64,000 nucleotides of DNA from Patescibacteria group bacterium (lineage in GTDB: Bacteria > Patescibacteriota > Patescibacteriia > GWA2-46-9), in assembly GCA_041660005.1 (NCBI GenBank), contig JBAZXG010000006.1:1879-65878 (forward strand), given 5' to 3'. Made by a program: the position numbers and the translations under genes. The notes below the pieces were generated by a model. It was not told the origin of the DNA. It worked only from the letters and a program-made list of their open reading frames with translations, and did not search any database. Shown here piece by piece: positions 1 to 49,815 of this stretch. Every line of letters begins with the position of its first letter. Within the stretch, counting starts at the first letter, position 1.

Positions 1-3000
1 ACTGTTCCATTGAATATGAGTACAAGGTGCTGCCGAGTCGTCTCCGGTACTGCCGGCGCTATTACTAAAACTGTTAGCAACGGTAACCTCTGTTTTCTTC
101 AGTTGGAAAACGCGCAGCTGGAAACCGGTTTCTTCCGACCCTTCCCAGGTGTAGAACGTACCACCGTCGCTACCGCCCGATTTCTCGCAAAACTGCAACT
201 GCTGATAATACTCACGCGCTTCACCGCCAGACGCCTCTTTGTCAAGGTTCGTAAATTCGTCACAGCCAACAGCGGCGGCACTACATTGCTTGGCCGTCGT
301 TGGTATCAAGTCAACAAACTTTGCCTGCTCAAAAAAGGTTGTACCAGCAGTATAGGTATCAAACCCAACGCATTCGCGCGGGCACATCTCCCCACTTATT
401 GCAGTGATGGCTGATGTTCCGTTCGTCGGAGTGTAACGTGCACAACCCACTTCTTGCGGCAAACAATAGCGCGCGTACGGTGCGCAAACCGGTTGATCGG
501 CGTTCGCATCCGCAGCATTGGTCGCTACTCCTGTTGGTCGACAACTGAGTGTGTCTTCGCTCGGTGCTTTGTAATTTGCATCCTTCTCCGATCGATAATA
601 TGGCGCACGTTTAATGTGCGTCAATGTTGTAGCATATGGCAAATACGTACCTGGCGCCTGACCGACTGTCAGCGTAAGTGCGTCAATATCTGTTCCTTCA
701 GGAACCTGCAGAGTGAGCTTCGCAGTATTTGAAGAAGTCGTAACAGGGAACGAAGTCGTTCCCTCAAACCTTGCCCAAGTGTCAGTGAGTGGTTGGTCTG
801 GTGTTGTGAACGAGGTACTTTCGCTGTCCCCGACTATGCTATAAGAGATCGTCCCTGTACCACTCGCCTGCTTGGCATAGAAGCTAAAACCTAATGTTTG
901 AGCACTCAGCGGTCCCGTTAAAATAGTAGATTGACTCAGCTCAGCATTAGCAGTGAGTGCGTGCAAATACCGCTCACCGTTATACACTCCGGAATCTTTG
1001 GTTGGGACAAATGCCCCTGTATTGTACGACCAGCCTTCTGGACTATCGTCGGTAGACGATATCACTGCCTCAAAACTGGCGTTGCGCAGTAAATTATTTT
1101 TTTCTGCCATGGCAACACCTGCGCCGGTACGCACAAAAGCACGGCAACCGTCGTTCTTGTCGTCACACGTCTTGGCTTGCGCATTCAAATAAACCGTAGC
1201 CGCCGGATCAAGACTCCACTGCTCATTACCAAGGTTCTGAAGACTGTAACGATGACACCCAACGGAACTGGCGTCACAACCATCGAAGTCAACGGTATTC
1301 AAAAGGTAAGAAACAGACGCTCCTGATTCCACATTCGACAATGTTGTGCAACTCGCAAATTGCGGCTGACAATCTGCCCGCCCAAAATCCCAGGTTCGTT
1401 TCTCTTCAGTGCAGTAACCATAGAATTGACAGTTTCCTGCGCTATCCCGCTGAATGCACGTTTGCTCGTCAGCACAATAATTATCATCGCGCGTTATGTT
1501 CAGAGTTGGCGGCTCGTCTCCGGGCGACACGTAGAGACCGTCACCATCAGCATCTGTACCTGCACTAACGTTGCGTGAAATGATTTTCGGACCCGGTCCT
1601 TGCAGACGACAGAATGCATCGGGTGGCACAAAAACCCAATTGGGATCAACGAGGTGATAGAAAGGATTACTCACATCCTTAGTTGGAGCCGTGTCGTAAG
1701 CATCAATAAGCTGTCGCAACGTAACGCGCTGTTGGCCGAAATGCTGAATATAACGGGCCGCCAGCTCCCAACCAACCGGCACAATGCGGTACTTTCGTAG
1801 AATTAAAATAGTGCGGTAGGGAATCCCGTCATTGTAACTCGGTTCGATGGGCTGTGGATTCCAACCGACGAAGCCAAAAGGAGTATCACCGTTAACGAGA
1901 CCTTTCTCAACCGCCTCACTGACAGTCAATTTTTGCGTTATGGCAGTTCTAAAGTTGTCGTTGATAACGCAGTCCGTAGGACCAACGTTGGAGCTATCGT
2001 CGCAAGAAACAAGTTTCGAAAGAACATCATAGCGGCCTGGCGTGCTGAAGTCCGGTCTTATTTCTTGCGCGAGACGAGTTTTTGCGCCAAGAACACCTTC
2101 GCCTGGTAGTTGTGCTTCGTAATTAGTCAAATTTGCCTTCTTGCTACCACTACCACCAGTGAACCCTTGCGTCAACAAGTTGTTAAGAAGAGTACTCGCT
2201 AATGTTTTGGTGAAGACATCAACGGCGTCGGCAATCACATTTCCGGTAAAGCTGATTTCGCCACCCTCAACAGTTCCAAATGTCTCTTTCCATAAATCCC
2301 GCACAGCGGTTCCAGGGAATGTAATAACCTCATTCACTTTCCCTGCCACATCTTTAAATCCGCCTCCACTTAATCGCGTCAGTGTGGCATTCAAGCCGGA
2401 TTGCCACTGTTTCGAAACAAGATTCGTTTGAACAGCAAGAGCGGTGCTGAGATCAGACTCACCCGGGTTAAACGAGCGATTAAACTCCGGAATAAAGTTT
2501 GCTTTGGTAATGGCCTGACTCCAGTTGTTTTTTAAAGTGCTAAATGTACAACGCGGTCGCGCTTGACCGGCATTGGTTAGACCTAAGTTAATCTTTAACC
2601 GCACGGTCAGGTTAGGCGCGCACAAATTTAATCCTTCCCAAATGCCCCCTTTGCCAGTCAGGTTGCCACCTTCTAACCAGTGACATGTAGCGCCCGCACC
2701 ATTAATCGGGTTACTGATACATGCATCAATATCTTTTACCAACGGCGTGGCAACGATGGTTCCGTTCCCGTTACGACACTCGCAACTACCTGCTCCAGAT
2801 TGCCCTGTAATCATACCGTCCAAGAAAACACCAGCCGTTTGGTCAGCTGCGTCAAGAAGGTATGCTCCCCATCCTTGTGTCTCAAAGAGTGGTTGTTGTC
2901 CTCGACCTCCGCTGGCAATCCAGGTAGCAGTATCTGCTGCAATTTTTCTCAAAAAGAACTTAACACCCTGACGGAAAGACAGAGCAGCTGAGGTCTTTAA

Positions 3001-3252
3001 ACTTTCGACTAATTTATTCCAACTGAAATTTTGTGCCCAAGATTTTAGATCGCTGGCAATCTGTTTCGGTGCATCTCCTACAATTACCGTCCCTTCTATA
3101 GGCACGTTTCCGCTTTGTGCGTAGGCATCTTTTGTTGAATACGCAAGACTAGAAACGAGAATAGTAGAATACGCAATACTAGAAACGAGAATAAACAAAA
3201 GCACTAAAGCAAAATGTTTTTTCTGTTTTTTGTTTGTGTTGTTTGGTTGCAT
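1..3252 (-). CDS. Large secreted/anchored Cys-rich surface protein, 5'-partial in window (>1083 aa; continues past position 1). N-terminus MQPNNTNKKQKKHF + hydrophobic stretch (signal/anchor), then Cys-rich, Gly/Thr/Asn-rich extracellular region
   Basis: Hand translation of the minus strand from ATG (complement of 3250-3252) down to position 1 in one frame gave no stop codons. Frame was verified at several spot-checked segments (e.g. 3001-3060 IASDLKSWAQNFSWNKLVES; 1501-1560 GTDADGDGLYVSPGDEPPTL; 1-60 SAGSTGDDSAAPCTHIQWNS). All plus-strand ORFs of the track in this span are short shadow ORFs. Not in the ORF track, presumably because no stop lies in the window. Confidence 0.75.
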   Translation of the reverse strand, partial: MQPNNTNKKQKKHFALVLLFILVSSIAYSTILVSSLAYSTKDAYAQSGNVPIEGTVIVGDAPKQIASDLKSWAQNFSWNKLVESLKTSAALSFRQGVKFFLRKIAADTATWIASGGRGQQPLFETQGWGAYLLDAADQTAGVFLDGMITGQSGAGSCECRNGNGTIVATPLVKDIDACISNPINGAGATCHWLEGGNLTGKGGIWEGLNLCAPNLTVRLKINLGLTNAGQARPRCTFSTLKNNWSQAITKANFIPEFNRSFNPGESDLSTALAVQTNLVSKQWQSGLNATLTRLSGGGFKDVAGKVNEVITFPGTAVRDLWKETFGTVEGGEISFTGNVIADAVDVFTKTLASTLLNNLLTQGFTGGSGSKKANLTNYEAQLPGEGVLGAKTRLAQEIRPDFSTPGRYDVLSKLVSCDDSSNVGPTDCVINDNFRTAITQKLTVSEAVEKGLVNGDTPFGFVGWNPQPIEPSYNDGIPYRTILILRKYRIVPVGWELAARYIQHFGQQRVTLRQLIDAYDTAPTKDVSNPFYHLVDPNWVFVPPDAFCRLQGPGPKIISRNVSAGTDADGDGLYVSPGDEPPTLNITRDDNYCADEQTCIQRDSAGNCQFYGYCTEEKRTWDFGRADCQPQFASCTTLSNVESGASVSYLLNTVDFDGCDASSVGCHRYSLQNLGNEQWSLDPAATVYLNAQAKTCDDKNDGCRAFVRTGAGVAMAEKNNLLRNASFEAVISSTDDSPEGWSYNTGAFVPTKDSGVYNGERYLHALTANAELSQSTILTGPLSAQTLGFSFYAKQASGTGTISYSIVGDSESTSFTTPDQPLTDTWARFEGTTSFPVTTSSNTAKLTLQVPEGTDIDALTLTVGQAPGTYLPYATTLTHIKRAPYYRSEKDANYKAPSEDTLSCRPTGVATNAADANADQPVCAPYARYCLPQEVGCARYTPTNGTSAITAISGEMCPRECVGFDTYTAGTTFFEQAKFVDLIPTTAKQCSAAAVGCDEFTNLDKEASGGEAREYYQQLQFCEKSGGSDGGTFYTWEGSEETGFQLRVFQLKKTEVTVANSFSNSAGSTGDDSAAPCTHIQWNS

Positions 3253-3256
3253 ACGG

Positions 3257-3988
3257 CTACGGCTTCTGCGATATCTTTAGTTGTTCAAGCGTCTGCTGAT
3301 ATAACTGCAAGAGTTCCGCATCAGTAACTTCGGAAAGCGTTGCGTCGTCAATTCCGTCTTGTTTCAACAAAGCACGCAGCTCAGACGGAGAAAGATTTTG
3401 TATCTTTTGAGCTGCCGCATTTTGCTGTTGCGTTGCTAGCGCCTGCTGGTAACTCGCTATGAGCTGTGCGTCAGTGAGACCCGCAATTTCTTGCTCCGAC
3501 ATTCCGGATTGCTTCAGTAGTGCCCGCAACTCTGTAGGTGTCGGCGTCGGAGTAGTCGCAGTAGGATTTGCTCCTGTGATCGGCACAATGGCTGTCCCGG
3601 CACCAGCAGCCGGCGCAGGCGAAGAACAGTCTTGCCCTGTCGGACAGTTTGGATCAGTACTATTGGCAATTTCCTGCCCATCAGGAATGCCGTCTGAGTC
3701 TGAATCAGCTAAATATGGACTTGTTTTGTAAACATTTACTTCGTCAGCGTCCGACAGACCGTCTCCGTCAGTATCAATGTTAGAGTTCGTGATGCTACCA
3801 TTTGCTGCTGCAAAAATATCTTGATTTTGGCCATCAGAAGAGACTGCAAAAGGCGCATAGACTGATTTACGGATACTGATTCCGCCAAGAATAATTGCGC
3901 TCCCCCCAATAATAAAAATGGTCGTTAAAAGAAGCCCTTGTGTATGGCGAGACAGTTGGCGCTTGATGACTTTTTTAAAACTCAACAT
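3257..3988 (-). CDS. Membrane-anchored protein with thrombospondin-type-3-like Ca-binding Asp repeats (DTDGDGLSDADE, DSDSDGIPDGQE) and two ~32 aa internal repeats (ELRALLKQ.G...)
   Basis: ORF track 243 aa with N-terminal TM helix and DxDxDG motifs. Its stop codon lies 4 nt before the start of the downstream giant CDS (same strand), suggesting translational coupling. Confidence 0.65.
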   Translation of the reverse strand: MLSFKKVIKRQLSRHTQGLLLTTIFIIGGSAIILGGISIRKSVYAPFAVSSDGQNQDIFAAANGSITNSNIDTDGDGLSDADEVNVYKTSPYLADSDSDGIPDGQEIANSTDPNCPTGQDCSSPAPAAGAGTAIVPITGANPTATTPTPTPTELRALLKQSGMSEQEIAGLTDAQLIASYQQALATQQQNAAAQKIQNLSPSELRALLKQDGIDDATLSEVTDAELLQLYQQTLEQLKISQKP

Positions 3989-4020: not shown

Positions 4021-4050
4021 TGATTTATTCATTATAGCAGAGAACGACCT
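4021..4050 (-). promoter_or_regulatory. Sigma70-like promoter (TTGACT-N18-TATAAT on minus strand) upstream of the 243 aa / giant-protein gene pair
   Basis: Reverse complement of 4021-4050 reads TTGACTttgcaggtcgttctctgcTATAAT, ~35 nt upstream of the ATG at 3988. A hairpin at 4052-4086 lies just upstream. Confidence 0.35.
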
Positions 4051-4131
4051 GCAAAGTCAAAGAGAGTGGAGATGACTCCACTCTCTTTTTGTTTCTTTAA
4101 TGAAAAAGGACAAAATGTCTTTGTTCAGTAT

Positions 4132-4488
4132 TTAATATGCCCACCAACGGGTTGCTTGAAATGCAGATCCCGGAGCACCAAGTCCAAGAACCCAACCGCC
4201 CGGTCGAGGCTGAGGAAGACCTCCGGCTCTCGTTGCAGGATTAACCGCAACAAAATCCTGTGAACCCATGCCGCTCACAACCGTATAGGGTGTCATGAGG
4301 CCCCAGGGTGTACAAGGATTAGCAGGAGGTACGGTACAAACAACAATTGCTCCTACCCGTTGATAAAAAGGCATACCAGCACCATTAGCAAGCTTAACAC
4401 CCACACCAATGACGACCAAAATAACGAGAAGCATTCCCAAGGAAACTTCGCTCAATGGTTTAACCCAACGCTTTGGAATAATTTGCAT
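4132..4488 (-). CDS. Small membrane-anchored hypothetical protein (Pro/Gly-rich, 2 Cys)
   Basis: ORF track 118 aa with a hydrophobic segment LGMLLVILVVIGVGV, in the same co-directional gene string. Confidence 0.4.
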   Translation of the reverse strand: MQIIPKRWVKPLSEVSLGMLLVILVVIGVGVKLANGAGMPFYQRVGAIVVCTVPPANPCTPWGLMTPYTVVSGMGSQDFVAVNPATRAGGLPQPRPGGWVLGLGAPGSAFQATRWWAY

Positions 4489-9675: not shown

Positions 9676-10056
9676 CTATGCTGCTTTTGACTTTCTATAG
9701 GTGTCGAGATAGCGAATGAAACCACCGATTTCTTTTCCCAATTTTAGAAACATATCGTTTAAATCCTCGAACAAGTTAGTAGAAACATAACCAATATTAC
9801 GGGCTATATAAAGCTGATTTCTAACTTCACCCGTAGAACCTTTGGCGATCCGTAAATATCGAATTAACTCATTCGTACTGTTTTTCTCAAAACCCTCTAC
9901 TATGTTGGAGCTTATTGAAACTGTGGCTCTACGAATTTGATCTCGCAGTCCGAAATCTTTCGACCAACTCCCCCTTGATGTTATGTCGTATATCTTTGTA
10001 GTAACCTCAATAGCTGAAATCCAGACTGGTAATTCTTCAAAGCGGCTATATTTCAT
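9676..10056 (-). CDS. Four-helix-bundle protein (23S rRNA intervening-sequence-protein family, TIGR02436-like)
   Basis: 126 aa; VSISSNIVEGFEKNS...LRIAKGSTGEV motif typical of this family. Confidence 0.75.
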   Translation of the reverse strand: MKYSRFEELPVWISAIEVTTKIYDITSRGSWSKDFGLRDQIRRATVSISSNIVEGFEKNSTNELIRYLRIAKGSTGEVRNQLYIARNIGYVSTNLFEDLNDMFLKLGKEIGGFIRYLDTYRKSKAA

Positions 10057-12940: not shown

Positions 12941-13990
12941 CTAGTAACTGGTGCGGGCGCACACGCCAAGGTCTGGCGTATTATCGTAGTGAACATCGCG
13001 CGCATTACAAATTAGGCCAGCTGCGCAGTCACCATGATCGTCACCAATGATTCCATCATTTAAACAGGGTTCTCCTTCTCTCGCCATAGGGAGGCAACAA
13101 CCAGCAAAATCTGAAGGCCATGACAGTAAGGTATAAGGAATTGAGGTCCTTTGTTGGGGTGACTCTTGACTGAAAGGCGCGCAAGACCAGGCCTTATTGC
13201 AAGCATACCCATGCACCGTATCGCACTGAACATCGGCCAAACAATATCCTGCTTGTTTTTGTTCCTTTAACTGAGCTTGGCATTGTGCAAGATTAGAACA
13301 GCTACCTTTCGCACTATTCAGCTGGCAAGTGCTACCGGGATTATTCTTTTGACATATAGACAATGCCGCTTGTTGGCGTTCAGTCTCGCCATAGGAAGCA
13401 AAAGTGCAGGATGGATCAATAGTTTGGCATTCTGCCTGACTTATTGTTTTCTTCTGCACGTTATTTGGACAGGTGCAATCACCGAGTATCGTCGCAGGCG
13501 CATCGGTGCAAGTAGTCGCATTGGCAGTACTGTTACATAAACAACAATAGGTTTCCTGATCAATAACAGGTATACCAACATGACCGATGTTCATTATCTG
13601 ATCGAGCGGTTTAAAAGTTACCAGCGCAGGATTGATTGTATTTAAAAGTACCCAGGAAACAAGCAGCAAAACATAGCCTGAAAGCGCCCCATTAATGTAA
13701 CTTTTTGCCCGTTCAATTTGCGTCGTGTTACCAGCAGACGTTAGCCATAAAAAACCGCCAACAGCCAAAATTATGCCAGCTAACACCCCTGCAGCGTATA
13801 CGGAAAACGTGTAGACCGATAAAATATACTTTCCAATGGTGTCGTTTGCTATGTTAACGGTTGAATTGGCATTTCCAAAACCTGGCAAACCGACTTGCAA
13901 TTTCAGCGATACCGCCAACACTTGGCTGCCAGCCATCAATCCAACAAAAACAAATAGTATAAATAATTGCAGCGCTCTTTTTTTTGTCAT
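12941..13990 (-). CDS. Signal peptide + two-TM TrbC/VirB2-like pilin-type N-terminus with a long Cys-rich (~40 Cys) extracellular C-terminal domain
   Basis: 349 aa; N-terminal [26 protein letters not shown], two further TM helices, then a Cys-dense region. Assigning it to the TrbC/VirB2 family is inference from topology only. Confidence 0.55.
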
Positions 13991-13992
13991 AA

Positions 13993-14742
13993 TTACTGCT
14001 TTGTTGAAGTAAGAAGCATATCGACAACTTGTTGGAACAAATCCTTCGGAATCGCCCCAGCAATTTTATGACCGTTAATAAACCACGTTGGAGTACCCTC
14101 TACGCCGAGCGCCGTACCGTCTGCAATATCTCGCTCAACAACACTTTTATACCGATGACCCGAGAAGCAGGTAGTAAAGCGCTGACTATCGGCTCCAACC
14201 TGGCGTGCGTACGTAAGCAAGCTTGTCTCGTCAAGTGCCGATTGATTAAGAAACAGCCGGTCGTGGTATGGCAAAAATTTATCTTGCTCGGCTGCGCACA
14301 TTGAGGCCTCTGCCGCCAACATTGCGTCTGGATGCAGTGATGCCACAGGAAATTGCCGATACACAAACCTCAAACCATCCGGATACTGTGCCATTAAAGA
14401 CCGTATAATAGGAAAAGACTCCTCACAAAATGGACATTGGAAGTCTCCAAACTCAACGACCGTTACTGGTGCATCGGATCGGCCCACTACCAGACTATCG
14501 CTCCGTATCAACTTTTCTGCGTCGCTCGCGCTTACCGCCGGCGGGAGACTACTTTCGCTAAAAGGGTTTTGATTTTGGCCTGTTGTTGACTGAGATAACC
14601 GAGCGTAAATCCGAGAACTAATAGAGAGAACTAAAAGCACTACTCCGCCCAAAATAAAAAGCAGTGCAATTCCCCACCACCGACGCCACCATGGTTTTGG
14701 TGTTGAAACAGCAGAATAGGATGGAGATAAAAAATCGTTCAC
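13993..14742 (-). CDS. Membrane-anchored DsbA-family thiol:disulfide oxidoreductase (thioredoxin fold, CPFC active site)
   Basis: 249 aa, N-terminal TM, VVEFGDFQCPFC motif, GTPTWFING near C-terminus. Confidence 0.75.
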   Translation of the reverse strand: MNDFLSPSYSAVSTPKPWWRRWWGIALLFILGGVVLLVLSISSRIYARLSQSTTGQNQNPFSESSLPPAVSASDAEKLIRSDSLVVGRSDAPVTVVEFGDFQCPFCEESFPIIRSLMAQYPDGLRFVYRQFPVASLHPDAMLAAEASMCAAEQDKFLPYHDRLFLNQSALDETSLLTYARQVGADSQRFTTCFSGHRYKSVVERDIADGTALGVEGTPTWFINGHKIAGAIPKDLFQQVVDMLLTSTKQ

Positions 14743-25878: not shown

Positions 25879-27465
<1,587 letters not shown>

Positions 27466-27559
27466 TTAATCCTCTTTGCTCCGAAGAACAAAGAGGGGTG
27501 GTTGCGATATAGACACACCGTCTATACCAACAACCGAAAAGAAATTTAACGGAGGTTTC

Positions 27560-38545: not shown

Positions 38546-39526
38546 TTAATGTAGGGTCGTAATCGGTCGCGACTGAGTGATGTAAAACTTTTTCTTATAC
38601 AACGCCCATTCAATATCTTGTGGGTGTTTATAATGGCGTTCAATCAATACGCAAATTTTTGCGAGTTCTATAATTTGTTTACCTGTGAGCTTTTGCTTGC
38701 CACCAACCTTCGGACTTAACTTTTTTTCTATAGTACCTTTTTGCGCTCTAACAATCGCCATTCTTTGCTCAGATACATTAATGTCGAGAAGTGAATAATT
38801 TTTCTTCAAAATAACGTAGGTGTCAGGGGTGACCTGTCCAGAAACAATCGCTTCTCCTAACCCAAAGCCAGCTTCAATGACTATTTGATCTCGATCGTTC
38901 GTTACAGGATGAGTAGTGAAGGCAATGCCAGAAACTTCAGATTGCACCATTTGCTGCACCACAACAGCGACGGATACAGGCACACGATGCAGTTTTTTCT
39001 CAAAACGATAAAAGATCGCGCGTGGGGTGAATAACGACGACCAACATTTCATTACTGATTGAGTAAGATTTTTTTCAGATACGTTCAAGTATGTTTCTAA
39101 CTCACCTGCCCAGGAAGCAACTTTTGAGTCTTCGGCTGTGGCAGATGAACGCACTGCAACAAGAATTTTTTTGCCTTTGCTTAACTGTTTATACGCTGCC
39201 TTAACTTCTCTTTGCAAGTTTAATGGCATTTTCTCTCGGTGTATAATGTCACGAATTTTAACCGACGCCTTTTCGACCGAGTTAATATCTTTGGGCTTCA
39301 CACTGTGCAAAATGTTTTCGAGTTCAATATTAATGTCTGTTTCTGCCATAAACGCATCAAAAGCAGATGCTAGCACAACAAAACCAGGCGGCACGAATCC
39401 CTGGGCTTGCCCGCCGAATCCTTGGAGAAGGTGGGTCATTTCGCCCAAGGAAGCACCTTTGCCACCAGCGATTTTTACGTCACTATTAGTTATTTTTTCA
39501 AAAACTTTTGTGAACAATAAACTCAT
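38546..39526 (-). CDS. Stand-alone PEP synthase/pyruvate phosphate dikinase N-terminal ATP-grasp (PPDK_N) nucleotide-binding domain protein; last gene of the operon
   Basis: 326 aa; GGKGASLGEM, VPPGFVVLASAF, VAVRSSATAEDS..SWAGELETYLNV, QDIEWA..FYITQSRPIT. These are the canonical PPDK_N blocks, with no His or PEP-binding domains. Confidence 0.85.
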   Translation of the reverse strand: MSLLFTKVFEKITNSDVKIAGGKGASLGEMTHLLQGFGGQAQGFVPPGFVVLASAFDAFMAETDINIELENILHSVKPKDINSVEKASVKIRDIIHREKMPLNLQREVKAAYKQLSKGKKILVAVRSSATAEDSKVASWAGELETYLNVSEKNLTQSVMKCWSSLFTPRAIFYRFEKKLHRVPVSVAVVVQQMVQSEVSGIAFTTHPVTNDRDQIVIEAGFGLGEAIVSGQVTPDTYVILKKNYSLLDINVSEQRMAIVRAQKGTIEKKLSPKVGGKQKLTGKQIIELAKICVLIERHYKHPQDIEWALYKKKFYITQSRPITTLH

Positions 39527-41034
39527 ACTTTTTTTATTATACCTCTATTCGCATCAACCTCAATAATATCGCCCTCCTTAATTTGTTCTAAAACGCCCTG
39601 CGCACCAACAACCGCCGGTATTTTTAACTCCCGCGACACAATTGCCGCGTGCGAAGTAATACCTCCTTCTTCCGTCACAATACCACCAGCAATTTTCATA
39701 ACGGGTATATACTCTGGGCGAGTGTTTGGCGCAACAAGAATGTCGCCACGTTGGAACTTTTTAAAATCTTTTTGACTAAGCACAATCTTGGCAGTACCAA
39801 TAACTTTACCAGGATACGCCGTTCGACCAACTACGTTATCAGTAACAACCAAACTATTCATAAACTGTAATAACGCCTTTGCTTCCCGACCGCTGACAAA
39901 CTGAAGAGTTGTTTTTTTAGGAATAGCAACAAAAATCCCTCGCCTACGTGTTTGTAATATCTTACGATACTGTGATGTCGGCGAAAGTAATTTTTCCGCC
40001 TCCCAATACAAGGCGTACTCCGCTTCACGTAATGGCACACGACTTCTTCTAGTAAATTCTTGAAGGTACCGCTTCAGTAGTTCGTTCCCCATTTGGTTCA
40101 TAGCTTTTCGCTCATCCCGCCAGGTGGCAACAATACTGATCATGTTCGCTACCAACAAAACGGCATGCGGAATTTTCATGCGGCGAATAAATACTTTTTT
40201 CTTTAATAAGTCCCTCTTCAAAACAGCAGGCAATCGTAACTCATTATTTAATTTCTTAGGATTTTTTAGCAGTTCACGAATTGTATTTAAAAAATGACTT
40301 GATGTCAGGCGACGTACAAACGCATAATCACTGAGTGACCAAAAATATGTATCAGTGTGTGCTTTAATTTTCTGAACAAAAAATGGAAACCGCTTAGTAA
40401 TAACACCAATACTTGCACCTTTTTTAATCAAACCCTGAAGAGCAGGATTTCTTTCTGCAGCGGCGGCAAGGCGAGCAATATCTAGACGTTCAATTTGTGT
40501 TGGTAGCAAATAAGGACTCTGAACTAGTAGGTCAACTTCGGCTGAAGTTAGACGCACTCCTGCTTTATCGCACACGTTGTAAATAAGTGTCTCTCCGAAC
40601 ACATCAAAAGCATCATGAAACATTGATTCGCGCCAGAGAGAGTGATACTTTTCAATTTCAACATAGTAGCACTTCAAAAGTTCTGCATTACTTAATTGTT
40701 GTATGCCAGCCCACGGCAGTCCTTTAACGACCGAATCTTGAAACTGTTTATATGATTTACGCCATTTTTGGTAGCGACTCCACATATCACCGGGAATGTT
40801 TTGCTCACGATGTAAAAAATAGTTTGTAACTCGCTTCGCATCTTTCTTGGAAAAAAACAGGGTTGCATAATCGTTACTAAAGTAGGTTAAAAAACAAAGC
40901 TGCAAATCCACTGTTTTTTGATCTACGGTCATAGCGACACAGCTACTGTATGGTGGCGAAATATACAAAATTTTAACTGCGGCACCTTGACGGTACCATT
41001 TCAGTTTTGCCAGCTCTTTTTGGACAAATTTCAT
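39523..41034 (-). CDS. Paralog 6: divergent ~410 aa N-terminal domain + C-terminal PEP-utilizing-enzyme phosphohistidine (swivel) domain
   Basis: C-terminus RGDILVAPNTRPEYIPVMKIAGGIVTEEGGITSHAAIVSRELKIPAVVGA (TSHAAI catalytic His). ATGA overlap with the downstream ATP-grasp gene. Confidence 0.8.
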   Translation of the reverse strand: MKFVQKELAKLKWYRQGAAVKILYISPPYSSCVAMTVDQKTVDLQLCFLTYFSNDYATLFFSKKDAKRVTNYFLHREQNIPGDMWSRYQKWRKSYKQFQDSVVKGLPWAGIQQLSNAELLKCYYVEIEKYHSLWRESMFHDAFDVFGETLIYNVCDKAGVRLTSAEVDLLVQSPYLLPTQIERLDIARLAAAAERNPALQGLIKKGASIGVITKRFPFFVQKIKAHTDTYFWSLSDYAFVRRLTSSHFLNTIRELLKNPKKLNNELRLPAVLKRDLLKKKVFIRRMKIPHAVLLVANMISIVATWRDERKAMNQMGNELLKRYLQEFTRRSRVPLREAEYALYWEAEKLLSPTSQYRKILQTRRRGIFVAIPKKTTLQFVSGREAKALLQFMNSLVVTDNVVGRTAYPGKVIGTAKIVLSQKDFKKFQRGDILVAPNTRPEYIPVMKIAGGIVTEEGGITSHAAIVSRELKIPAVVGAQGVLEQIKEGDIIEVDANRGIIKKV

Positions 41035-42548
41035 AACTTTCTTACTAATCCTTGATCACTATCAATTTCGACAAAATCACCATTCTTTAATACTTTCGTG
41101 GCGACTTTGGTGCCAATTATACAAGGGATGTTCAGTTCACGGGCAATAATTGCTGCATGGCACGTTATACCACCTTCGTCGGTAATAATGGCCCTGGCTT
41201 GACGCACAAGCGGCATAAATTCCGGCCGCGTCATTGTTGTTACCAAAATTGAACCTTTTCTAAATTTCGATTTACTGACCTCAAGCACTACCTGAACACG
41301 ACCTTGAATTTTTTTTACTGGCGAAGCAACAACTTGCCCTTTAATTTCTTTTTTACTTGCTTGGTTAATAAAAATAACACTCCAAATTTTTTTTGCACTG
41401 CTACCTGTATAAATATGTTCATAATTTATACCATTTCGTTTTGTCTGAACGAAAGCTGAAAACTTGCGACGTAGAGCTAATTCGCGTTTATTTGGTATTT
41501 TACCGCCACGCAATAACTGATGACGTTCTTCAATACTCAAATATTTTATCTCCCAAATATTTAGCTTGCTCCGCCGTTCAAGTTCGTTAGCATAAACCTC
41601 AAAATACAGATTAGCAATTAGTGCCAAATGCTTCCTTTCGTCTATCCAACTCATCCAAAAAGACAGTAGTTTAAAGGCAGTTTTTAATTCGTAAGAAAGT
41701 CTAAATTGTTTACGTAAGCGGAACTGTGCTAATCTTAGTCTCTTTATTTTTGATAGTAAATTATACAACTCGACTTTTAACTTTTTTTGAGAGTTCTCTT
41801 CGCATTGTCGTCGTACCTCTTTATAAAGAATGCTAGGAATCAATAAATTGGATTTCTTATAGTTTGAATTAAGCCAGAAATATTTTTTTGATAACAGATT
41901 GACAGTTTTTTGAAGCGCTGTCGGACTTTTTGACAAAGAACTGAATCTACGAACTACGCCGTACCATCGAACGGCTACTTCTAGAACTTCACATTGATAC
42001 TCCTCAAGAAAACTTAACTTTAATGGTTGCGATAAAGTTGCCATGATATTTGTTACCTCCGCTGGTGTAAGCTGCGGTAGCTCCCGAGATAGTAACTTCG
42101 GTAATTCATACGTTGTAAAAACATCTGCCGATTCTAATACCCAAGTAATTCGCCAATGGTCAAGAACGAGCCGATTAAAACGGTCCATGGATTTGATTAC
42201 TTCCTGATCGCTCAACCCATTTCTTGATTTAATAAAAAAATCTCCCTCTCTATTAATACCACGCCTAACTTCCCGCCAGAGTTCATAATTCTTTCGCTGC
42301 AATGTTGAACCTCTTTGATACTTTTTCCAAAGATAATGCCAGATTGCCAATTTTTGATCCTCGGGTGTCTCTTCAAATACAAAATCCGATTTGAAAAATG
42401 CTACCATAAAGTTTGGCAACGTTGGATGCCAAAATTTTGACTGCTCAACAAAAGCACGAACCCAAATAGAAAACATGGGCACCGCTGGTGCCTCCTCCGA
42501 CCAGTAAGTATGTTTTTTTGTTTCTTTCAACGTTCTTTCTAAACTCAT
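41031..42548 (-). CDS. Paralog 5: N-terminal unknown domain + PEP-utilizing swivel domain
   Basis: C-terminus KGSILVTTMTRPEFMPLVRQARAIITDEGGITCHAAIIARELNIPCIIGT; ATGA overlap both sides. Confidence 0.8.
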   Translation of the reverse strand: MSLERTLKETKKHTYWSEEAPAVPMFSIWVRAFVEQSKFWHPTLPNFMVAFFKSDFVFEETPEDQKLAIWHYLWKKYQRGSTLQRKNYELWREVRRGINREGDFFIKSRNGLSDQEVIKSMDRFNRLVLDHWRITWVLESADVFTTYELPKLLSRELPQLTPAEVTNIMATLSQPLKLSFLEEYQCEVLEVAVRWYGVVRRFSSLSKSPTALQKTVNLLSKKYFWLNSNYKKSNLLIPSILYKEVRRQCEENSQKKLKVELYNLLSKIKRLRLAQFRLRKQFRLSYELKTAFKLLSFWMSWIDERKHLALIANLYFEVYANELERRSKLNIWEIKYLSIEERHQLLRGGKIPNKRELALRRKFSAFVQTKRNGINYEHIYTGSSAKKIWSVIFINQASKKEIKGQVVASPVKKIQGRVQVVLEVSKSKFRKGSILVTTMTRPEFMPLVRQARAIITDEGGITCHAAIIARELNIPCIIGTKVATKVLKNGDFVEIDSDQGLVRKL

Positions 42549-43996
42549 ATTTTCCTCACAACTCCGGTGTTTCCGTTTACTTCAATTCTGTCACCCGTTT
42601 TAAATACAGCTGTAGCTATCTCTGTTCCCGTAACGCAGGGTATCCTAAGTTCACGAGAAATAATGGCTGCGTGCACGGTTACTCCACCTTCGTTCGTTAC
42701 CACGGCCACAGCTTTTTTCATGGCCGGAACAAAATCAGGGGTCGTCATTGGTGTAACTAAAATGTCTCCCTTTTTCAAAAATTTTATGGCTCGGCGAGGG
42801 TCCTCGGTCACAAATGCCCTACCGGTCGCGATACCAGCCGAGGCTGGTGCACCTTTAACAGAGGTTAGATTATTATTCTTTAATTTCAACTTATTATCAA
42901 TAAAGCGTAACGCTTGTTTACCGGTTTTTTCTAATTTTTTTGAGCCGTTCATAACAACCAAATAACCAGATTTACGATCAATTACTGTACGCTTTGGAAT
43001 TTTGCCGGTTCGAATAACACGACGCAGCTCATTTGGTTTCAGCCAAACGAGATCGGCCATTTTTAAACTATACGTCCGAGCAACTTTTCTTCTAATTTCA
43101 TCCATTAAAAAGAGCGAGCGCATCTGAATTTCTTTTCTTTGATCGTGCATGCGAGCGATCTTGTCAAGAACCGTCAAATAAGGTCGCACTACTTTTTCCG
43201 GCACTTGAAAACGCTTAAGAACGGCACGCCTATTTTCAGCAATTCTTTTTGCGTAGTCTAAAATATACTTTCTCTCTTGTTGATATTCTATTGATGTCAA
43301 TTTCGCACAAGCTCGAGTTTCTTGTTTTATTTTTTTTCGGGTCAACACCCCTCTTCCACCCCAACCTATAGTCAACCAATAATACTTTCGATAAATGTGC
43401 TCGACGTCTTGAGCGCTGACTAGAAATTTTTTATTTTTGATTTTTTTAGAGAGTTCAAGTATGGCCAATTTATAATTCAAAACTTCACTTCTGTACGCTG
43501 GTTGTAAAACCTTGGACCAGGCATCTTTGTCGTCTACTAAGTTCGGATATCCCTGACGTGAAACTTCTCTGGTCACTATTTCTTCAAAAAAGTCATCGAA
43601 CGCATCAATGCCAACACCAACGATACGGCAATGTTCAACAGCTAAGTCATGTATGGTTGTGTACACTTTGATTAAAGCTTCTGTGTTTTTCGGCAAAGTG
43701 GAAGAAATCAATAACGAAAAATACGCCAGAGCATTTTTGTAGTGCTTATTTTCCACTCTATAAAATCTTCCGTTCACACCACTTGTTATCATTTTTTGAA
43801 CCCACTTTACCCCAACATTTTTATACTCAGGCATCCCATAGGCCCAATAAATATGCGACCCCTTAAGCGCAACGGCTAAACGTGGAGCAATATGATACTC
43901 GACGCCGCGCATGGGTTTTGCCATAGATTCAAAGTATGGCTGAAGCGCTGCAAAGGTTACGCCATCCCGTTCATAAAGTTTGTACTGTGCATTCAT
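42545..43996 (-). CDS. Paralog 4: N-terminal unknown domain + PEP-utilizing swivel domain
   Basis: C-terminus KGDILVTPMTTPDFVPAMKKAVAVVTNEGGVTVHAAIISRELRIPCVTGT. Confidence 0.8.
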   Translation of the reverse strand: MNAQYKLYERDGVTFAALQPYFESMAKPMRGVEYHIAPRLAVALKGSHIYWAYGMPEYKNVGVKWVQKMITSGVNGRFYRVENKHYKNALAYFSLLISSTLPKNTEALIKVYTTIHDLAVEHCRIVGVGIDAFDDFFEEIVTREVSRQGYPNLVDDKDAWSKVLQPAYRSEVLNYKLAILELSKKIKNKKFLVSAQDVEHIYRKYYWLTIGWGGRGVLTRKKIKQETRACAKLTSIEYQQERKYILDYAKRIAENRRAVLKRFQVPEKVVRPYLTVLDKIARMHDQRKEIQMRSLFLMDEIRRKVARTYSLKMADLVWLKPNELRRVIRTGKIPKRTVIDRKSGYLVVMNGSKKLEKTGKQALRFIDNKLKLKNNNLTSVKGAPASAGIATGRAFVTEDPRRAIKFLKKGDILVTPMTTPDFVPAMKKAVAVVTNEGGVTVHAAIISRELRIPCVTGTEIATAVFKTGDRIEVNGNTGVVRKI

Positions 43997-45465
43997 ACTT
44001 TTTTGACCGTGCCTGTTTTGGTATTAACTTCGACAATATCACCATCTTTAAATACTTTAGTCGCCGCACCAGTGCGAACAAGGCAAGGGATACCCAGTTC
44101 ACGAGATACCACGGCTGCATGAGAGGTCATACCGCCAGTATCTGTAACAACTGCGGCTGCTTTTCGCATCAAAATAACAAACTCTGGAGATGTCATTGGG
44201 GCCACGAGAATATCCCCCTTTTTCATCTTTTTTTGATCTTTAAAGGGGTCTCTAATTATTTTGACTGCCCCTCTAACGTTGTAACCGTTTCCCCGACTAA
44301 CAACCAACCCCCTCACTTCTTTTATACTTTGACTGACTCTTGAGTCATACTTTTTTAGTAACGACTCGGCTTGCTTCCCGTAATATTCTTTTACTTTTTC
44401 TTTTCCAGAAACCCAACAGTAAACTTTAGCTCGAGAGATTATTTTTTTATAATCAAGTTTCTGCCTTTGTGCTAATTGCGTAACCTCCCACGGCCAACAC
44501 CAAACAATATCGTTAAATTTCCAATTGTTTCGCCAAGCAATTTCCTTCACTAACTTGTCTGTGTAAAACTGCATCCTCCAAATGTACATTTTGCGTAAAT
44601 CCTGCCACCAAATTGAGTTGCTGAGTTGTTCAGCCGTGAACTGAACATTTTTCGAAAGTCCGACATTTTTAACTAATGCTCTTTTCTTTTTTTGAGCGTC
44701 GATCATTCGACCCTCAATTTTTCTTATTCTTTTCTGCACATCGGATCGTGACGACAATCTCTTCACCTTTTTTTCAAAATATTGCTCACTCAAAATCTTA
44801 CTTCCCGCATAGTTACTCAGTAGCAAACGATATAGCTCTGCATGTTTCAAAAAAGCATTCAGCCGCTTTTTTTTGTTTTTTATCAATGCCAACCGTAACA
44901 AATCAAGCTCCTCCTGTTGAGTAAAGGAAAGTTTTGTGAGCGCTGACAAAGTTTCTAAATAATCTTCGGCCTTGTTTGCATCAATTTTTTTCAGACTATC
45001 ATAAAGAATTTTTTCTCCTCCCCAATTGGCAATCTCTGGTATATGCACAATACACCACAATGCATCCATGCAAACGTACGTAATCTCATAGAGAAGCAAT
45101 AAATCTTTGTCTGACAATCTTTTTACATCAACCGCTTCTAAAAAACTTATAATTTTCCTGGATTCGAGTACCCACCTTTCCCACCGTGACCAAAGCAACT
45201 GATAATTTTTTTTGTTTAAAAAATATTTTATAAAATACTTCTGACCCGTTTGTTCAAGGATGTTGTATTCAACAATCCCTACAATTTTTCCATCTTGAAA
45301 AGCCGCTACCATAGATGGCCATGGCCAAGGATAATCTTTCTTATTTTTTCTTCCTGGACCTTTTAAGGTATCACCCCAAATTCCAACGTACAATGGACGA
45401 CCCTCTACGGGTCCCCATTTAAAGAGTGACCTTTGCGGATTCACCATATAAGACGACCGGTGCAA
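43993..45465 (-). CDS. Paralog 3: N-terminal unknown domain + PEP-utilizing swivel domain
   Basis: C-terminus KGDILVAPMTSPEFVILMRKAAAVVTDTGGMTSHAAVVSRELGIPCLVRT. Confidence 0.8.
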   Translation of the reverse strand: MHRSSYMVNPQRSLFKWGPVEGRPLYVGIWGDTLKGPGRKNKKDYPWPWPSMVAAFQDGKIVGIVEYNILEQTGQKYFIKYFLNKKNYQLLWSRWERWVLESRKIISFLEAVDVKRLSDKDLLLLYEITYVCMDALWCIVHIPEIANWGGEKILYDSLKKIDANKAEDYLETLSALTKLSFTQQEELDLLRLALIKNKKKRLNAFLKHAELYRLLLSNYAGSKILSEQYFEKKVKRLSSRSDVQKRIRKIEGRMIDAQKKKRALVKNVGLSKNVQFTAEQLSNSIWWQDLRKMYIWRMQFYTDKLVKEIAWRNNWKFNDIVWCWPWEVTQLAQRQKLDYKKIISRAKVYCWVSGKEKVKEYYGKQAESLLKKYDSRVSQSIKEVRGLVVSRGNGYNVRGAVKIIRDPFKDQKKMKKGDILVAPMTSPEFVILMRKAAAVVTDTGGMTSHAAVVSRELGIPCLVRTGAATKVFKDGDIVEVNTKTGTVKKV

Positions 45466-45468
45466 TAA

Positions 45469-46479
45469 CTAATGCTGTGCATCTTCGGCTTCAAACTTCG
45501 TTTGTGCCGCCGCAGCTAACTCAATTATTTTATCCCAATCTAAAGAAACTTTTTTACCCTCAAAAAGCTTTGCGCGCGCTGGGTCGGTAAACTCACAAGA
45601 AATTTCCGTATCTCGAGTAAAATCAGCAATATTTCGAGGATCGCCAAGCCGAGTATCCCTTTGAAGCTTAAGACGTAAGGCTGTCGCTTGGCTTGTAAAG
45701 CCGCCAATTTCGTCAACATCATCAAAGCCAATTTTTCTCTCTCCCGTTTTTTCATCCTCAACAACTAAAGCATATTTGTATAAAGATTCAGCGAACATAC
45801 CACTGCCGACAATTGGAATGGCTTTTGTTTCTCCTCCCTTCACTCCACGGCGAGAAAGTTCTAGGGTCTTCATGAGCTCATATGCCTCATTTTCTGCCAT
45901 AGTCCTAACTTCGGGTTCCTTTTGCATGGCTTTTCTGAAAGCAATGTTTTGTGCCATCTCCACATATTTCACTCTAAATTCTGGGTCCTGCTTAAATCTC
46001 TCCTGCTCTTCCGGACTTAGACCAGAAACCAGTCGACTAATCTCTGTACTCACAAGTTCCATTTCAGCTCTAAATTTATCAAGAAGACCCGCCCCCTTAT
46101 AGTCAACACCAATGCCACGACGCGTACCAATCACTTTACCTTTTCCATTACGCACTCGAGCTGGGCCGAGATCTTTTGACAGTCTTCCGACACCAAACCG
46201 TCCGCTCCCTTTTAATATATCTTCCCCTGTCTCACCATGGCGCGACTCGTCTCCGCCTCTTGGATGAACGAGAGTCACTTCTGGTGGGTAGGCCTCACCA
46301 AATTCTCTAGACATTTGTTTACCGGCAGGGGTCAAATCTGTTGGATCTTTGAAAGTAATAATACTGCCATCACTGAACGTAATCTTTCTCTCTCCTCCAT
46401 AACGACTACCGTGTCGTCCTAGGTCAATATAGGTAGTTGCAACAAATTGTTTTTCAGCCTCTGGGTTTCTTTCTACCAT
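45469..46479 (-). CDS. Hypothetical protein, possibly histidine-phosphatase-like (RHG motif: IDLGRHGSRYGGE)
   Basis: 336 aa. The family call is weak and rests on one motif. Confidence 0.35.
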   Translation of the reverse strand: MVERNPEAEKQFVATTYIDLGRHGSRYGGERKITFSDGSIITFKDPTDLTPAGKQMSREFGEAYPPEVTLVHPRGGDESRHGETGEDILKGSGRFGVGRLSKDLGPARVRNGKGKVIGTRRGIGVDYKGAGLLDKFRAEMELVSTEISRLVSGLSPEEQERFKQDPEFRVKYVEMAQNIAFRKAMQKEPEVRTMAENEAYELMKTLELSRRGVKGGETKAIPIVGSGMFAESLYKYALVVEDEKTGERKIGFDDVDEIGGFTSQATALRLKLQRDTRLGDPRNIADFTRDTEISCEFTDPARAKLFEGKKVSLDWDKIIELAAAAQTKFEAEDAQH

Positions 46480-46480
46480 A

Positions 46481-47074
46481 TTAAAAGATGCTAAATAAAT
46501 CTTTTTTAAGTTGGCCTACTGACGTATAGAGTAGCACTTTCATACCCGCATCGTTAGCACCTTGCACCCTTTCAGGGCGATCGTCAATATAGACGGCCTC
46601 TTCTCCTTTAACCCCTGCCCTTGCAAGGGCTAAATCAAAAATTCTTTTGTCCGGCTTTCGAATATGGTCGAACCCCGACACCGTTTTTACGGTAAACAAA
46701 TTGTCCCATCCGTAGCTACTGTTTAAATACTCAAACCACTCCTTGGGATTATTGGATATCACTCCGAGAATGAATTTTCCTTTCAATGTCTTTATAAATT
46801 CATAGAGCTCAGTATTGGGAGCAAAATGTCCGTAGATGTTTTTATTTAGCTCAACAATATTGAGTTCACCCTTAAAATCTTTTTTTAGTTCTTCGTAATA
46901 TTTTTTTTCAGAAATATTCCCTAGGGTAAACTCCTTCCAATACGGCCGATCGTGGGCTGAGGCGTAAAGCTCGCCCGCGTTTAAACCATGTGACTCTTCA
47001 TACTGCCGAATACCGGGATTATACCCTTCGGTCACTAACACACTACCGGAATCGAAGAATATTGCCTTCACCAT
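46481..47074 (-). CDS. HAD-superfamily-like hydrolase/phosphatase
   Basis: 197 aa; motif I-like IFFDSGSVL, motif II VISNN, motif III/IV K...VYIDDRPE. Confidence 0.55.
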   Translation of the reverse strand: MVKAIFFDSGSVLVTEGYNPGIRQYEESHGLNAGELYASAHDRPYWKEFTLGNISEKKYYEELKKDFKGELNIVELNKNIYGHFAPNTELYEFIKTLKGKFILGVISNNPKEWFEYLNSSYGWDNLFTVKTVSGFDHIRKPDKRIFDLALARAGVKGEEAVYIDDRPERVQGANDAGMKVLLYTSVGQLKKDLFSIF

Positions 47075-47086
47075 ACTGTTTAGGCT

Positions 47087-48583: not shown

Positions 48584-48601
48584 ATATTTCAGTTGAATTG
48601 A

Positions 48602-49171
48602 TTAAAGTAGTTTGTCGAAACAATGCGGATGTTCTATATAATATGAAAGCTCGCGCACAAAAGTTTCTACTAAGTTAATTTTGTTTTGTTGATGTAGTGC
48701 CCAAACTTCCTGTAGGTCGAAGGCATCAAAATCACTAATTTCAACTTTATTCGGAACGAATGGGCCGTCTGTTTGTCCTATGTACCAATATACCATGATG
48801 CCTCCTATCGATAAATCGGGCATGGGCAAAATTTTAAATAGGGTAATTTCTGTGTCGATCGACAGCTCCTCAGACAATTCACGCTTTGCTTCTTCTAGAA
48901 TTTCCTCTTTCGTGCTCGCGCCTGCGCCTACAAAACCACCGACTGCATACGACCAGCAATTGGGCTGTAAGTCTTTTGTAGCGCTACGCTGTTGTAGCCA
49001 AAATTTCCCGTCAGTATTACGTAACCAAATATGGGCTGACCGTCTCATTATTTTTTTGTTTGTTAAAAACTCTCTCCTACTCGCTCGACCAATGACCCTG
49101 TCGTTCATGTCAACAATATCATGAAGCTCTTCCAGCGAGTCAGTGGTATTGGTTAAGTTGACTTGACTCAT
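48602..49171 (-). CDS. NUDIX hydrolase
   Basis: Nudix box GGFVGAGASTKEEILEEAKRELSEELSI (GX5EX7REUXEEXGU). Confidence 0.8.
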   Translation of the reverse strand: MSQVNLTNTTDSLEELHDIVDMNDRVIGRASRREFLTNKKIMRRSAHIWLRNTDGKFWLQQRSATKDLQPNCWSYAVGGFVGAGASTKEEILEEAKRELSEELSIDTEITLFKILPMPDLSIGGIMVYWYIGQTDGPFVPNKVEISDFDAFDLQEVWALHQQNKINLVETFVRELSYYIEHPHCFDKLL

Positions 49172-49174
49172 AAA

Positions 49175-49813: not shown

Positions 49814-49815
49814 AT

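Follow-up and report, generated by a model that had tools for sequence, protein, structure and literature searches.

The window analysed here is a stretch of 64,000 nucleotides from a bacterium of the Patescibacteria group (positions 1,879 to 65,878 of the forward strand of contig JBAZXG010000006.1, assembly GCA_041660005.1). Its first 3,252 nucleotides are occupied, on the minus strand, by the 5' part of a very large gene whose product, hereafter the giant, is a predicted secreted Cys-rich protein with modules resembling carbohydrate-binding modules (CBMs). The gene and its recognisable parts are listed below, with positions in the protein given in amino acids (aa); proteins and loci of relatives carry P and L numbers.

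1..3252, minus strand: giant secreted protein gene, 5' 37% (aa 1-1084), recognised by its stop-free frame, identity to P0001 and colinearity with P0189.
3118..3252, minus strand: predicted Sec-type signal peptide (aa 1-45) with a Lys-rich n-region, a 26 aa hydrophobic core and a putative AYA|Q cleavage site, read from the sequence; the layout is the same in sampled relatives.
1483..3075, minus strand: family-defining N-terminal domain (N-domain; aa ~60-590), delimited by alignments A1-A6, the family profile and an AlphaFold2 (AF2) model.
1756..1824, minus strand: the most conserved block, IPYRTILILRKYRIVPVGWELAA (aa 477-499), with invariant R486, R489, P492, W495, E496 and A498.
1144..1476, minus strand: Cys-rich module A (aa 593-703), with 10 Cys in columns that are invariant or nearly so across the family.
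628..1098, minus strand: first CBM4/CBM22-like beta-sandwich (aa 719-875), from an AF2 model with a predicted local distance difference test (pLDDT) score of 85-96 and from Foldseek.
1..543, minus strand: Cys-rich module B (aa 904-1084 of a module reaching ~aa 1195), cut by the window edge; identified by a confident beta-rich model, the family hidden Markov model (HMM) and conserved Cys.

Six-frame translation bore out the central claim of an earlier note on this DNA, that a hidden, uninterrupted minus-strand frame runs from 3252 to 1. The frame comprises 1084 codons with no stop, for which the probability is 7.8e-26 at the region's own base composition, and the longest open stretch in the remaining five frames over 1-3252 is at most 137 codons. 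The ATG at 3252 is the first possible start, as an in-frame stop lies 8 codons 5' of it with no ATG, GTG or TTG between. The gene is missing from the list of open reading frames (ORFs) because the frame runs off the window with no stop in it; all ORFs listed inside 1-3252 are on the plus strand and are best read as shadows, since a conserved gene overlaps them on the other strand. A chance ORF can be dismissed in view of the stop-free probability (~8e-26) and more than 1,000 homologous clusters, and a phage or plasmid origin is not indicated, given the housekeeping synteny and no matches among PHROGs.

The window translation matches with 100% identity the 1710 aa P0001, which NCBI annotates as "hypothetical protein, partial" on a 77,962 bp contig of a Patescibacteria metagenome-assembled genome. 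That contig ends ~1.9 kb past the window start with the gene still open; P0001 itself is thus cut at the contig end, and the gene runs off the contig as well as off the window. P0001 aligns colinearly with the 2896 aa P0189, at 65% identity over 1,658 residues, and P0189 goes on for ~1,200 more. Complete giant genes have a median length of ~2,900 codons (55 species-representative loci). With colinear relatives of ~2,900 aa, the window must hold ~37% of the gene, and the earlier estimate of more than 1,080 aa, correct in that the protein continues past the window, understated its size. The annotation as a partial hypothetical protein conceals ~9 kb of conserved coding sequence. The only other contig found with the neighbouring 243 aa gene was shorter (6.5 kb), so that no longer version of the locus was obtained.

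A short class of 1,500-1,800 aa also occurs among the relatives; there, what is the C-terminal half in the long form is matched by separate genes further downstream. Two such loci show the split (L002, 8001-18631; L003, 8001-21511): a first gene of 1,645-1,836 aa corresponds to the first ~1,600 aa of a long-form protein, and separate Cys-rich genes beyond it (1,644 aa; 798 plus at least 395 aa) correspond to long-form aa ~1,800-2,900.

Searching with a profile of the N-domain retrieved 1,943 representative proteins (clusters at 50% identity) with E<=1e-3, of which 1,123 reached E<=1e-30; these proteins are 1,500-3,800 aa long, and the domain invariably occupies their N terminus. With one genome counted per species, relatives of the giant occur in 264 genomes. 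Informative titles name Ca. Uhrbacteria, Falkowbacteria, Buchananbacteria, Kerfeldbacteria, Komeilibacteria and Kuenenbacteria, or "Parcubacteria/Patescibacteria group", and the closest relatives (70% and 53%) belong to Ca. Uhrbacteria. We take the named lineages to be ABY1-type Patescibacteria (GTDB classes), to which the family appears restricted. Many locus contigs (L012, L014, L016, L024, L030 and others, from TPA assemblies) are titled "uncultured Gammaproteobacteria bacterium", and a few short ones Pirellulales, Zixibacteria or Methylomirabilis (the oddly titled set includes L075, L076, P0015 and P0198). These titles are most likely placeholder names or binning contamination rather than genuine occurrences.

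The N-domain carries the invariant block RKYRIVPVGWELAA; invariant columns were judged in alignments of 14-87 sequences. The AF2 model of the domain, built on a 46-sequence alignment, has a mean pLDDT of 63.9 and comprises an alpha/beta core (aa ~404-610) predicted at pLDDT 84-97, preceded by long helices of 23-52 residues of low confidence (pLDDT 35-65). The domain had no match in Pfam, NCBIfam, PHROG, PDB sequences, PDB folds or viral folds, and its profile gave none against the PDB. Searches with the whole giant fragment in Pfam, NCBIfam, PHROGs and, by phmmer, PDB sequences likewise returned nothing meaningful; matches to spidroin (E=0.03), Plectin and EGF_alliinase were regarded as noise.

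Downstream of the N-domain, Cys-rich and beta-sandwich modules follow one another. The AF2 model of P0001 aa 641-1340 (pLDDT 77.6) contains two beta-sandwiches, at aa 719-875 and aa 1198-1347, with confident Cys-rich beta modules between them; the family HMM matches module B at aa 960-1195 and finds the second CBM-like copy at aa 1210-1347. The sandwiches superpose on CBM4-2, CBM22, CBM16 and CBM61 (Foldseek probability 1.0, target TM score 0.65-0.74), with a root-mean-square deviation (rmsd) of 3.3-4.2 A over ~155-170 columns to 2y64, 2zew, 2xon, 4xuo and 8xmz, and share with these families the beta-jelly-roll fold and an NxxFE...W start motif. Unlike CBM4/22 modules, they are not attached to a recognisable glycoside hydrolase and are interleaved with disulfide-rich modules. 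The Pfam HMM PF02018 (CBM_4_9) matches neither the window fragment nor P0001, the copies here being too diverged for it, and exceeds its cut-off in several relatives (P0005, 34.3 bits; P0026, 45.9 bits; P0171, 49.7 bits). Full-length relatives have at least three CBM-like sandwiches according to the family HMM, and some family members contain a dockerin. The Cys positions, whose spacing the earlier note proposed to compare, are conserved across 46-87 sequences. The structural search, suggested there for adhesin or beta-helix folds, led instead to the CBM4/22-like sandwiches and to no fold for the N-domain. Multi-domain Foldseek matches to reelin repeats and Elapor1 reflect a similar alternation of beta-sandwiches with disulfide-rich modules; the global superposition is poor (TM score 0.12-0.17, rmsd >20 A), indicating architectural analogy, not homology.

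These parts evolve at different rates, as judged by comparing the giant with housekeeping genes between the same genome pairs. Relative to L004, identity is 68% for the N-domain, 71% for module A and 75% for module B, against 66% for leucyl-tRNA synthetase (LeuRS), 61% for Sua5 and 58% for KsgA. In distant genomes the N-domain and Cys modules retain 27-49% identity (module A 33-49%), compared with 30-41% for housekeeping proteins. The CBM-like modules are 52-65% identical in L004 and fall below BLAST detection in nearly all distant genomes. This pattern, in which the N-domain and Cys modules diverge much as KsgA and Sua5 do, points to a conserved scaffold with fast-evolving, putatively binding modules.

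Export of the giant is suggested by its N terminus. In sampled family members the hydrophobic segment ends in an AxA-type motif, and in full-length relatives it is the only hydrophobic segment. The hydrophobic segment noted earlier is thus present, and it is probably a cleaved Sec signal peptide rather than the signal-anchor then proposed, although the long h-region would also be compatible with an uncleaved anchor. The core (window 3135-3200, minus strand; aa 18-39) holds the near-duplicate LVSSIAYSTI / LVSSLAYST, which lengthens it to ~26 residues and may explain the signal-anchor reading. Neither a C-terminal LPXTG motif nor a C-terminal transmembrane (TM) segment was present in 13 relatives, nine of them complete proteins of the long class; LPxT[GAN] was matched only once, in P0189 at aa 281, which is not C-terminal. 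Full-length relatives share a conserved C-terminal DNWGWC motif. The polypeptide is rich in Cys, Gly, Thr and Asn, as had been observed: compared with housekeeping neighbours, the fragment contains 2.7 vs 1.3% Cys, 9.1 vs 6.8% Gly, 9.7 vs 6.0% Thr and 5.6 vs 2.8% Asn. Complete long-class relatives have an even number of Cys, from 78 to 120, and short-class (split-gene) relatives an odd number.

Upstream of the giant gene, the following features are located on the same strand.

3257..3988, minus strand: 243 aa single-pass membrane protein with thrombospondin type 3 (TSP3) repeats, assigned by PF18884 and motif positions.
4031..4060, minus strand: promoter-like TTGACT-18 nt-TATAAT with TG, 11/12 matches in a consensus scan, a pattern match only.
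4132..4488, minus strand: 118 aa small membrane protein with a Cys pair, 67% identical to its orthologue in L004.
12941..13990, minus strand: VirB2-like pilin domain (aa ~49-119) of a type IV secretion system (T4SS), with a ~220 aa extension containing 22 Cys, suggested by PF18895 and NF045849.
13993..14742, minus strand: membrane-anchored DsbA-type thiol-disulfide oxidoreductase with a CPFC motif (PF13462, PF01323).

The 243 aa protein contains two calcium-binding repeats, a Cys pair, a Pro/Thr linker and two helical repeats. PF18884 (TSP3_bac) matches it in two stretches with 36.4 bits (cut-off 25; 4.5e-9), and its DxDxDG motifs are DTDGDG at aa 72 and DSDSDG at aa 95. The membrane anchor, the TSP3-like motifs and the two ELRALLKQ repeats reported earlier are all present, except that the repeats measure 34 aa (aa 151-184 and aa 201-234), not 32. 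The giant gene starts 4 nt after the stop of the TSP3 gene, as had been stated (TAG-ccgt-ATG). The TSP3 gene lies directly upstream of the giant gene in all 71 of the informative loci, as well as in L002-L009, which makes it the obligate upstream partner of the giant gene. The gap between the two genes varies from -1 nt to tens of nt (median ~22, with 19 gaps of <=6 nt), and no Shine-Dalgarno sequence is evident at the junction in the window; the adjacency is constant, but the translational coupling asserted in the earlier note is no more than plausible. The 71 loci belong to a set of 80 species-representative loci, of which 42 were informative for the polytopic gene described below.

The promoter-like site sits in the 143 nt that separate the TSP3 gene from the gene before it and is a possible start of a TSP3-giant transcription unit. 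Its -35 element abuts a perfect palindrome with a 13 bp stem, AAAGAGAGTGGAG-ATGA-CTCCACTCTCTTT (window 4059-4088), which lies between the 118 aa and TSP3 genes and might terminate transcription of the upstream unit or act as an operator. The 118 aa protein has no family match and is kept at this position only in the closest (Uhrbacteria-like) relatives, with matches in L010 and L011 only.

In the closest full-length relatives, whose contigs extend 3' of the giant gene, it is followed by genes for a small 2-TM protein, a ~9-TM polytopic protein (1,029-1,246 aa) with a large hydrophilic C-terminal domain, a ~450 aa protein, PrgI (VirB3-like), a TraC-like protein, a VirB4-family ATPase and a ~185 aa membrane protein. 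The PrgI/VirB3-like and TraC-like genes are marked by matches to PF12666 and PF26593. The genes for TSP3, giant, polytopic, PrgI, TraC-like and VirB4 proteins occur in that order in L004, L005/L006 and L009, including an uncalled VirB4 ORF in L009, and VirB4 is located 5-7 kb downstream of the giant in these loci. Among the species-representative loci, the polytopic gene is found downstream of the giant in 39 of 42 and KsgA upstream in 63 of 80. An independent metagenome sample was seeded on the polytopic protein. There the ~450 aa gene follows the polytopic gene in every case (32/32); within ~11 kb on the same strand, PrgI is present in 20/32 loci, and TraC and VirB4 are each present in 19/32. 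The C-terminus of a giant lies upstream of the polytopic gene in 38/48. Approximately 40% of the loci thus lack PrgI, TraC and VirB4 within 11 kb, so the four genes for the TSP3 protein, the giant, the polytopic protein and the ~450 aa protein are separable from the ATPase genes.

The polytopic protein is a candidate VirB6/TrbL analogue. In L009 (18291-20060) it is assigned to PF19590 (TrbL_3) in the precomputed annotation with no "weak" mark, and direct hmmscan gave nothing at E<=0.01. A conserved ~185-220 aa protein with one N-terminal TM segment is encoded after VirB4 (L004, 28016-28585; L005, 26328-26885; L009, 26610-27275). By size and position it would fit a VirB8/PrgL-like subunit, which a survey of Patescibacteria had difficulty in detecting (Quinonero-Coronel et al., 2025; PMC12102498).

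In the other direction, the minus-strand order in the window is DsbA, VirB2-like pilin, UvrA, 23S rRNA intervening sequence protein, LeuRS, Sua5, a major facilitator superfamily (MFS) protein, KsgA, the 118 aa protein, TSP3 protein and giant. This 11-gene order is the same in L004 and L010, with 57-68% identity. The pilin-like protein matches PF18895 with 24.8 bits, just below the cut-off of 26.6, and NF045849 with E=0.002; its L004 orthologue has the same weak PF18895 match, and orthologues adjoin DsbA in L004, L005 and L010. The oxidoreductase matches PF13462 (99.3 bits, 3.6e-28) and PF01323 (74.4 bits, 1.3e-20), and L004 has a 67% identical orthologue at the same position. Both genes lie where the earlier note had placed them, and their link with the giant is kept in relatives; the neighbourhood is, however, not the generic surface or adhesion cluster envisaged there. 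From gene order it appears to be the upstream half of a Patescibacteria T4SS-like locus, interrupted by UvrA, LeuRS, Sua5, MFS and KsgA, and this could not be seen in the window because the ATPase block would lie beyond the contig end.

The T4SS of Patescibacteria resemble the monoderm mating-pair-formation class MPF-FATA, are poor in relaxases and have VirB2-like pilins, with KsgA abundant near virB4 (Quinonero-Coronel et al., 2025; PMC12102498). The loci of the giant's relatives agree with this description in carrying a VirB4-family ATPase, PrgI/VirB3, a TraC-like/TrsD-type protein and a VirB2-like pilin next to KsgA, with no relaxase nearby, in monoderm small-genome hosts. The published component lists differ in containing no giant, TSP3 protein or ~9-TM and ~450 aa partners (PMC12102498; PMC10633639), and "no adhesins such as PrgB were detected" in the 2025 survey. 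PF02018, PF18884 and PF19590 do not appear in the available part of its supplement text, and no description of the giant family or the four-gene module was found in the searchable literature, an incomplete set. Saccharibacteria cannot grow as epibionts without their T4SS (Wang et al., 2023; PMC10633639). Genetics has been done there, in the only tractable Patescibacteria, a group outside the apparent ABY1-type range of the giant family.

Taken together, these features suggest that the giant, exported by Sec and oxidised by DsbA, serves the T4SS-like apparatus of Patescibacteria as a contact component that binds glycans, a reading to which we assign a probability of roughly 55%. The protein would be exported by Sec, most likely with cleavage after AYA45, and oxidised outside the cell, probably by the DsbA of the locus, into a ~300 kDa rod of disulfide-locked modules (~90 Cys). 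In it the conserved N-domain is followed by the Cys-rich scaffold carrying at least three CBM4/22-like lectin modules. The genes for the TSP3 membrane protein, giant, ~9-TM protein and ~450 aa protein form a fixed four-gene module, preceded by the VirB2-like pilin and DsbA and contiguous with monoderm-type PrgI/VirB3, TraC-like and VirB4 genes in the closest relatives and most other loci. Because the giant has no anchor of its own, we propose that it is held at the cell surface via its N-domain by the TSP3 protein and/or the polytopic protein. The fast-evolving lectin modules may then bind host envelope glycans, or contact may be with glycans of the environment. More tentatively, and with less confidence than in the role of the giant itself, the four-gene module, in which the giant would bring an N-domain of new fold and the ~9-TM protein a large ectodomain, could be the hitherto unrecognised extracellular half of the ABY1-type T4SS, a host-docking organelle that positions a secretion or uptake channel on the host envelope. 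Such an organelle would account for the way in which a repurposed, relaxase-less conjugation machine supports episymbiosis.

Several observations weigh against this interpretation. The window's own CBM-like domains are below Pfam significance, and a CBM-like fold would by itself be no proof of sugar binding; it is from this fold that we infer host glycans as ligands, just as membership of the machine is deduced from linkage. PrgI, TraC and VirB4 are not adjacent in the ~40% of loci mentioned above (none within 10 kb in L007 and L008), and the linkage could result partly from a shared position near KsgA or the replication origin. No VirB4 was found in the window, and the T4SS ATPase block expected in this genome is not visible because the contig ends ~1.9 kb past it. 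Finally, Pfam and PDB-profile searches did not confirm the polytopic protein as VirB6/TrbL, TrbL being matched at E=3.8 in one of six members.

Most CBM4/22 modules and dockerins occur as appendages of glycoside hydrolases, and the CBM-like modules and dockerins of this family raise the question of whether the giant is a secreted CBM-targeted enzyme. The N-domain would then be a new catalytic domain, a hydrolase of peptidoglycan or host-wall glycans opening the wall in a VirB1-like manner, and the lectins would only target it to its substrate. The invariant charged residues, including E496, within the confidently modelled core fit such a role, as does the rarity of VirB1 homologues, most VirB2 genomes being without VirB1 (PMC12102498). 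However, no sequence or fold likeness to any hydrolase in Pfam, NCBIfam or PDB was found, a disulfide-rich scaffold of 2,900 aa far exceeds the needs of an enzyme, and LysM/M23 peptidases are already encoded near the locus in several relatives, which makes the enzymatic role unlikely. Quite unlikely, too, is that ABY1-type Patescibacteria use the giant as a general structural protein of the envelope or of an S-layer type, adjacent to T4SS genes only through the conserved KsgA/LeuRS neighbourhood. Such a role would agree with a scaffold as slow-evolving as housekeeping genes, with a giant that appears roughly single-copy and follows KsgA in most loci (63/80), and with the ATPase block missing from the vicinity in ~40% of them. 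Yet the tight same-strand order from TSP3 to VirB4 recurs in most loci of relatives only ~30% identical, the VirB2-like pilin and DsbA co-occur, and S-layer proteins are normally Cys-poor and much smaller than the giant.

The VirB2-like pilin of the locus and the long helices predicted for the N-terminal part (23-52 residues) would also suit a pilus-associated tip or minor subunit (VirB5-like), with the helices inserted into the VirB2-like pilus, either at its tip or at its base, and the remainder forming an extended adhesive fibre; no VirB5 has been described for these systems (PMC12857230). This is very unlikely, considering the low confidence of the helical region (pLDDT 35-65) and the failure of Foldseek to retrieve any VirB5/TraC-type structure, and it is really a special case of the proposal that the giant is the contact component of the T4SS-like apparatus.

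As such a contact component, the giant would parallel the PrgB/Asc10 adhesins of Gram-positive conjugative T4SS (pCF10), large Sec-exported surface proteins whose genes belong to a monoderm T4SS operon and which are presumed to act in cell-cell contact. In contrast to these, the giant has no LPXTG sortase anchor and no sequence or domain similarity (no PrgB adhesin or Ig-like domains among Pfam, NCBIfam or PDB sequence matches), is three times larger, Cys-rich and equipped with CBM-like lectin modules, and is encoded in a chromosomal, not conjugative, locus. Giant surface proteins, very large and with signal peptides, have already been proposed as host-recognition factors in other, episymbiotic Patescibacteria, namely in Absconditicoccaceae (PMC13059738) and, of FhaB type, in Patescibacterium danicum (PMC11809585). 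Those proteins contain FhaB, fn3 and integrin-like domains, have no reported fixed T4SS linkage and are lineage-specific, whereas the family described here is conserved across hundreds of species. It offers a concrete, testable candidate for the host-contact component of a T4SS-like machine of the kind that is essential for epibiotic life in Saccharibacteria, locked in one locus with three unannotated partners. The module provides domains to express (the lectin modules and the N-domain), partners to co-fold and a marker for finding such loci.

Some further features of the window were noted. The gene for the 23S rRNA intervening sequence protein (PF05635; window 9676-10056, minus strand), between UvrA and LeuRS, occurs at differing positions in the same locus of relatives (L002, 7098-7475 and 18761-19165; L009, 23051-23401). 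The two L002 copies are 74% identical and lie just upstream of the giant and between the split second gene and the polytopic gene, respectively; such changes of position resemble those of a small gene that is mobile or often re-inserted. A low-GC block at 38546-51348 (minus strand; 0.38-0.42 vs ~0.47) encodes one PPDK_N ATP-grasp protein and, after it, six paralogues of ~483-510 aa that each end in a PEP-utilizers mobile domain; genes for a HAD hydrolase, a NUDIX protein and two unknowns are scattered among them. L008 has a similar PEP-utilizers run immediately after its giant-gene module. The window also contains a complete 16S rRNA gene of 1,589 nt (1,533-position model; 25879-27467, minus strand), which no 23S or 5S gene adjoins, and dispersed tRNA genes at 17.3-23.8 kb and 37.8 kb.

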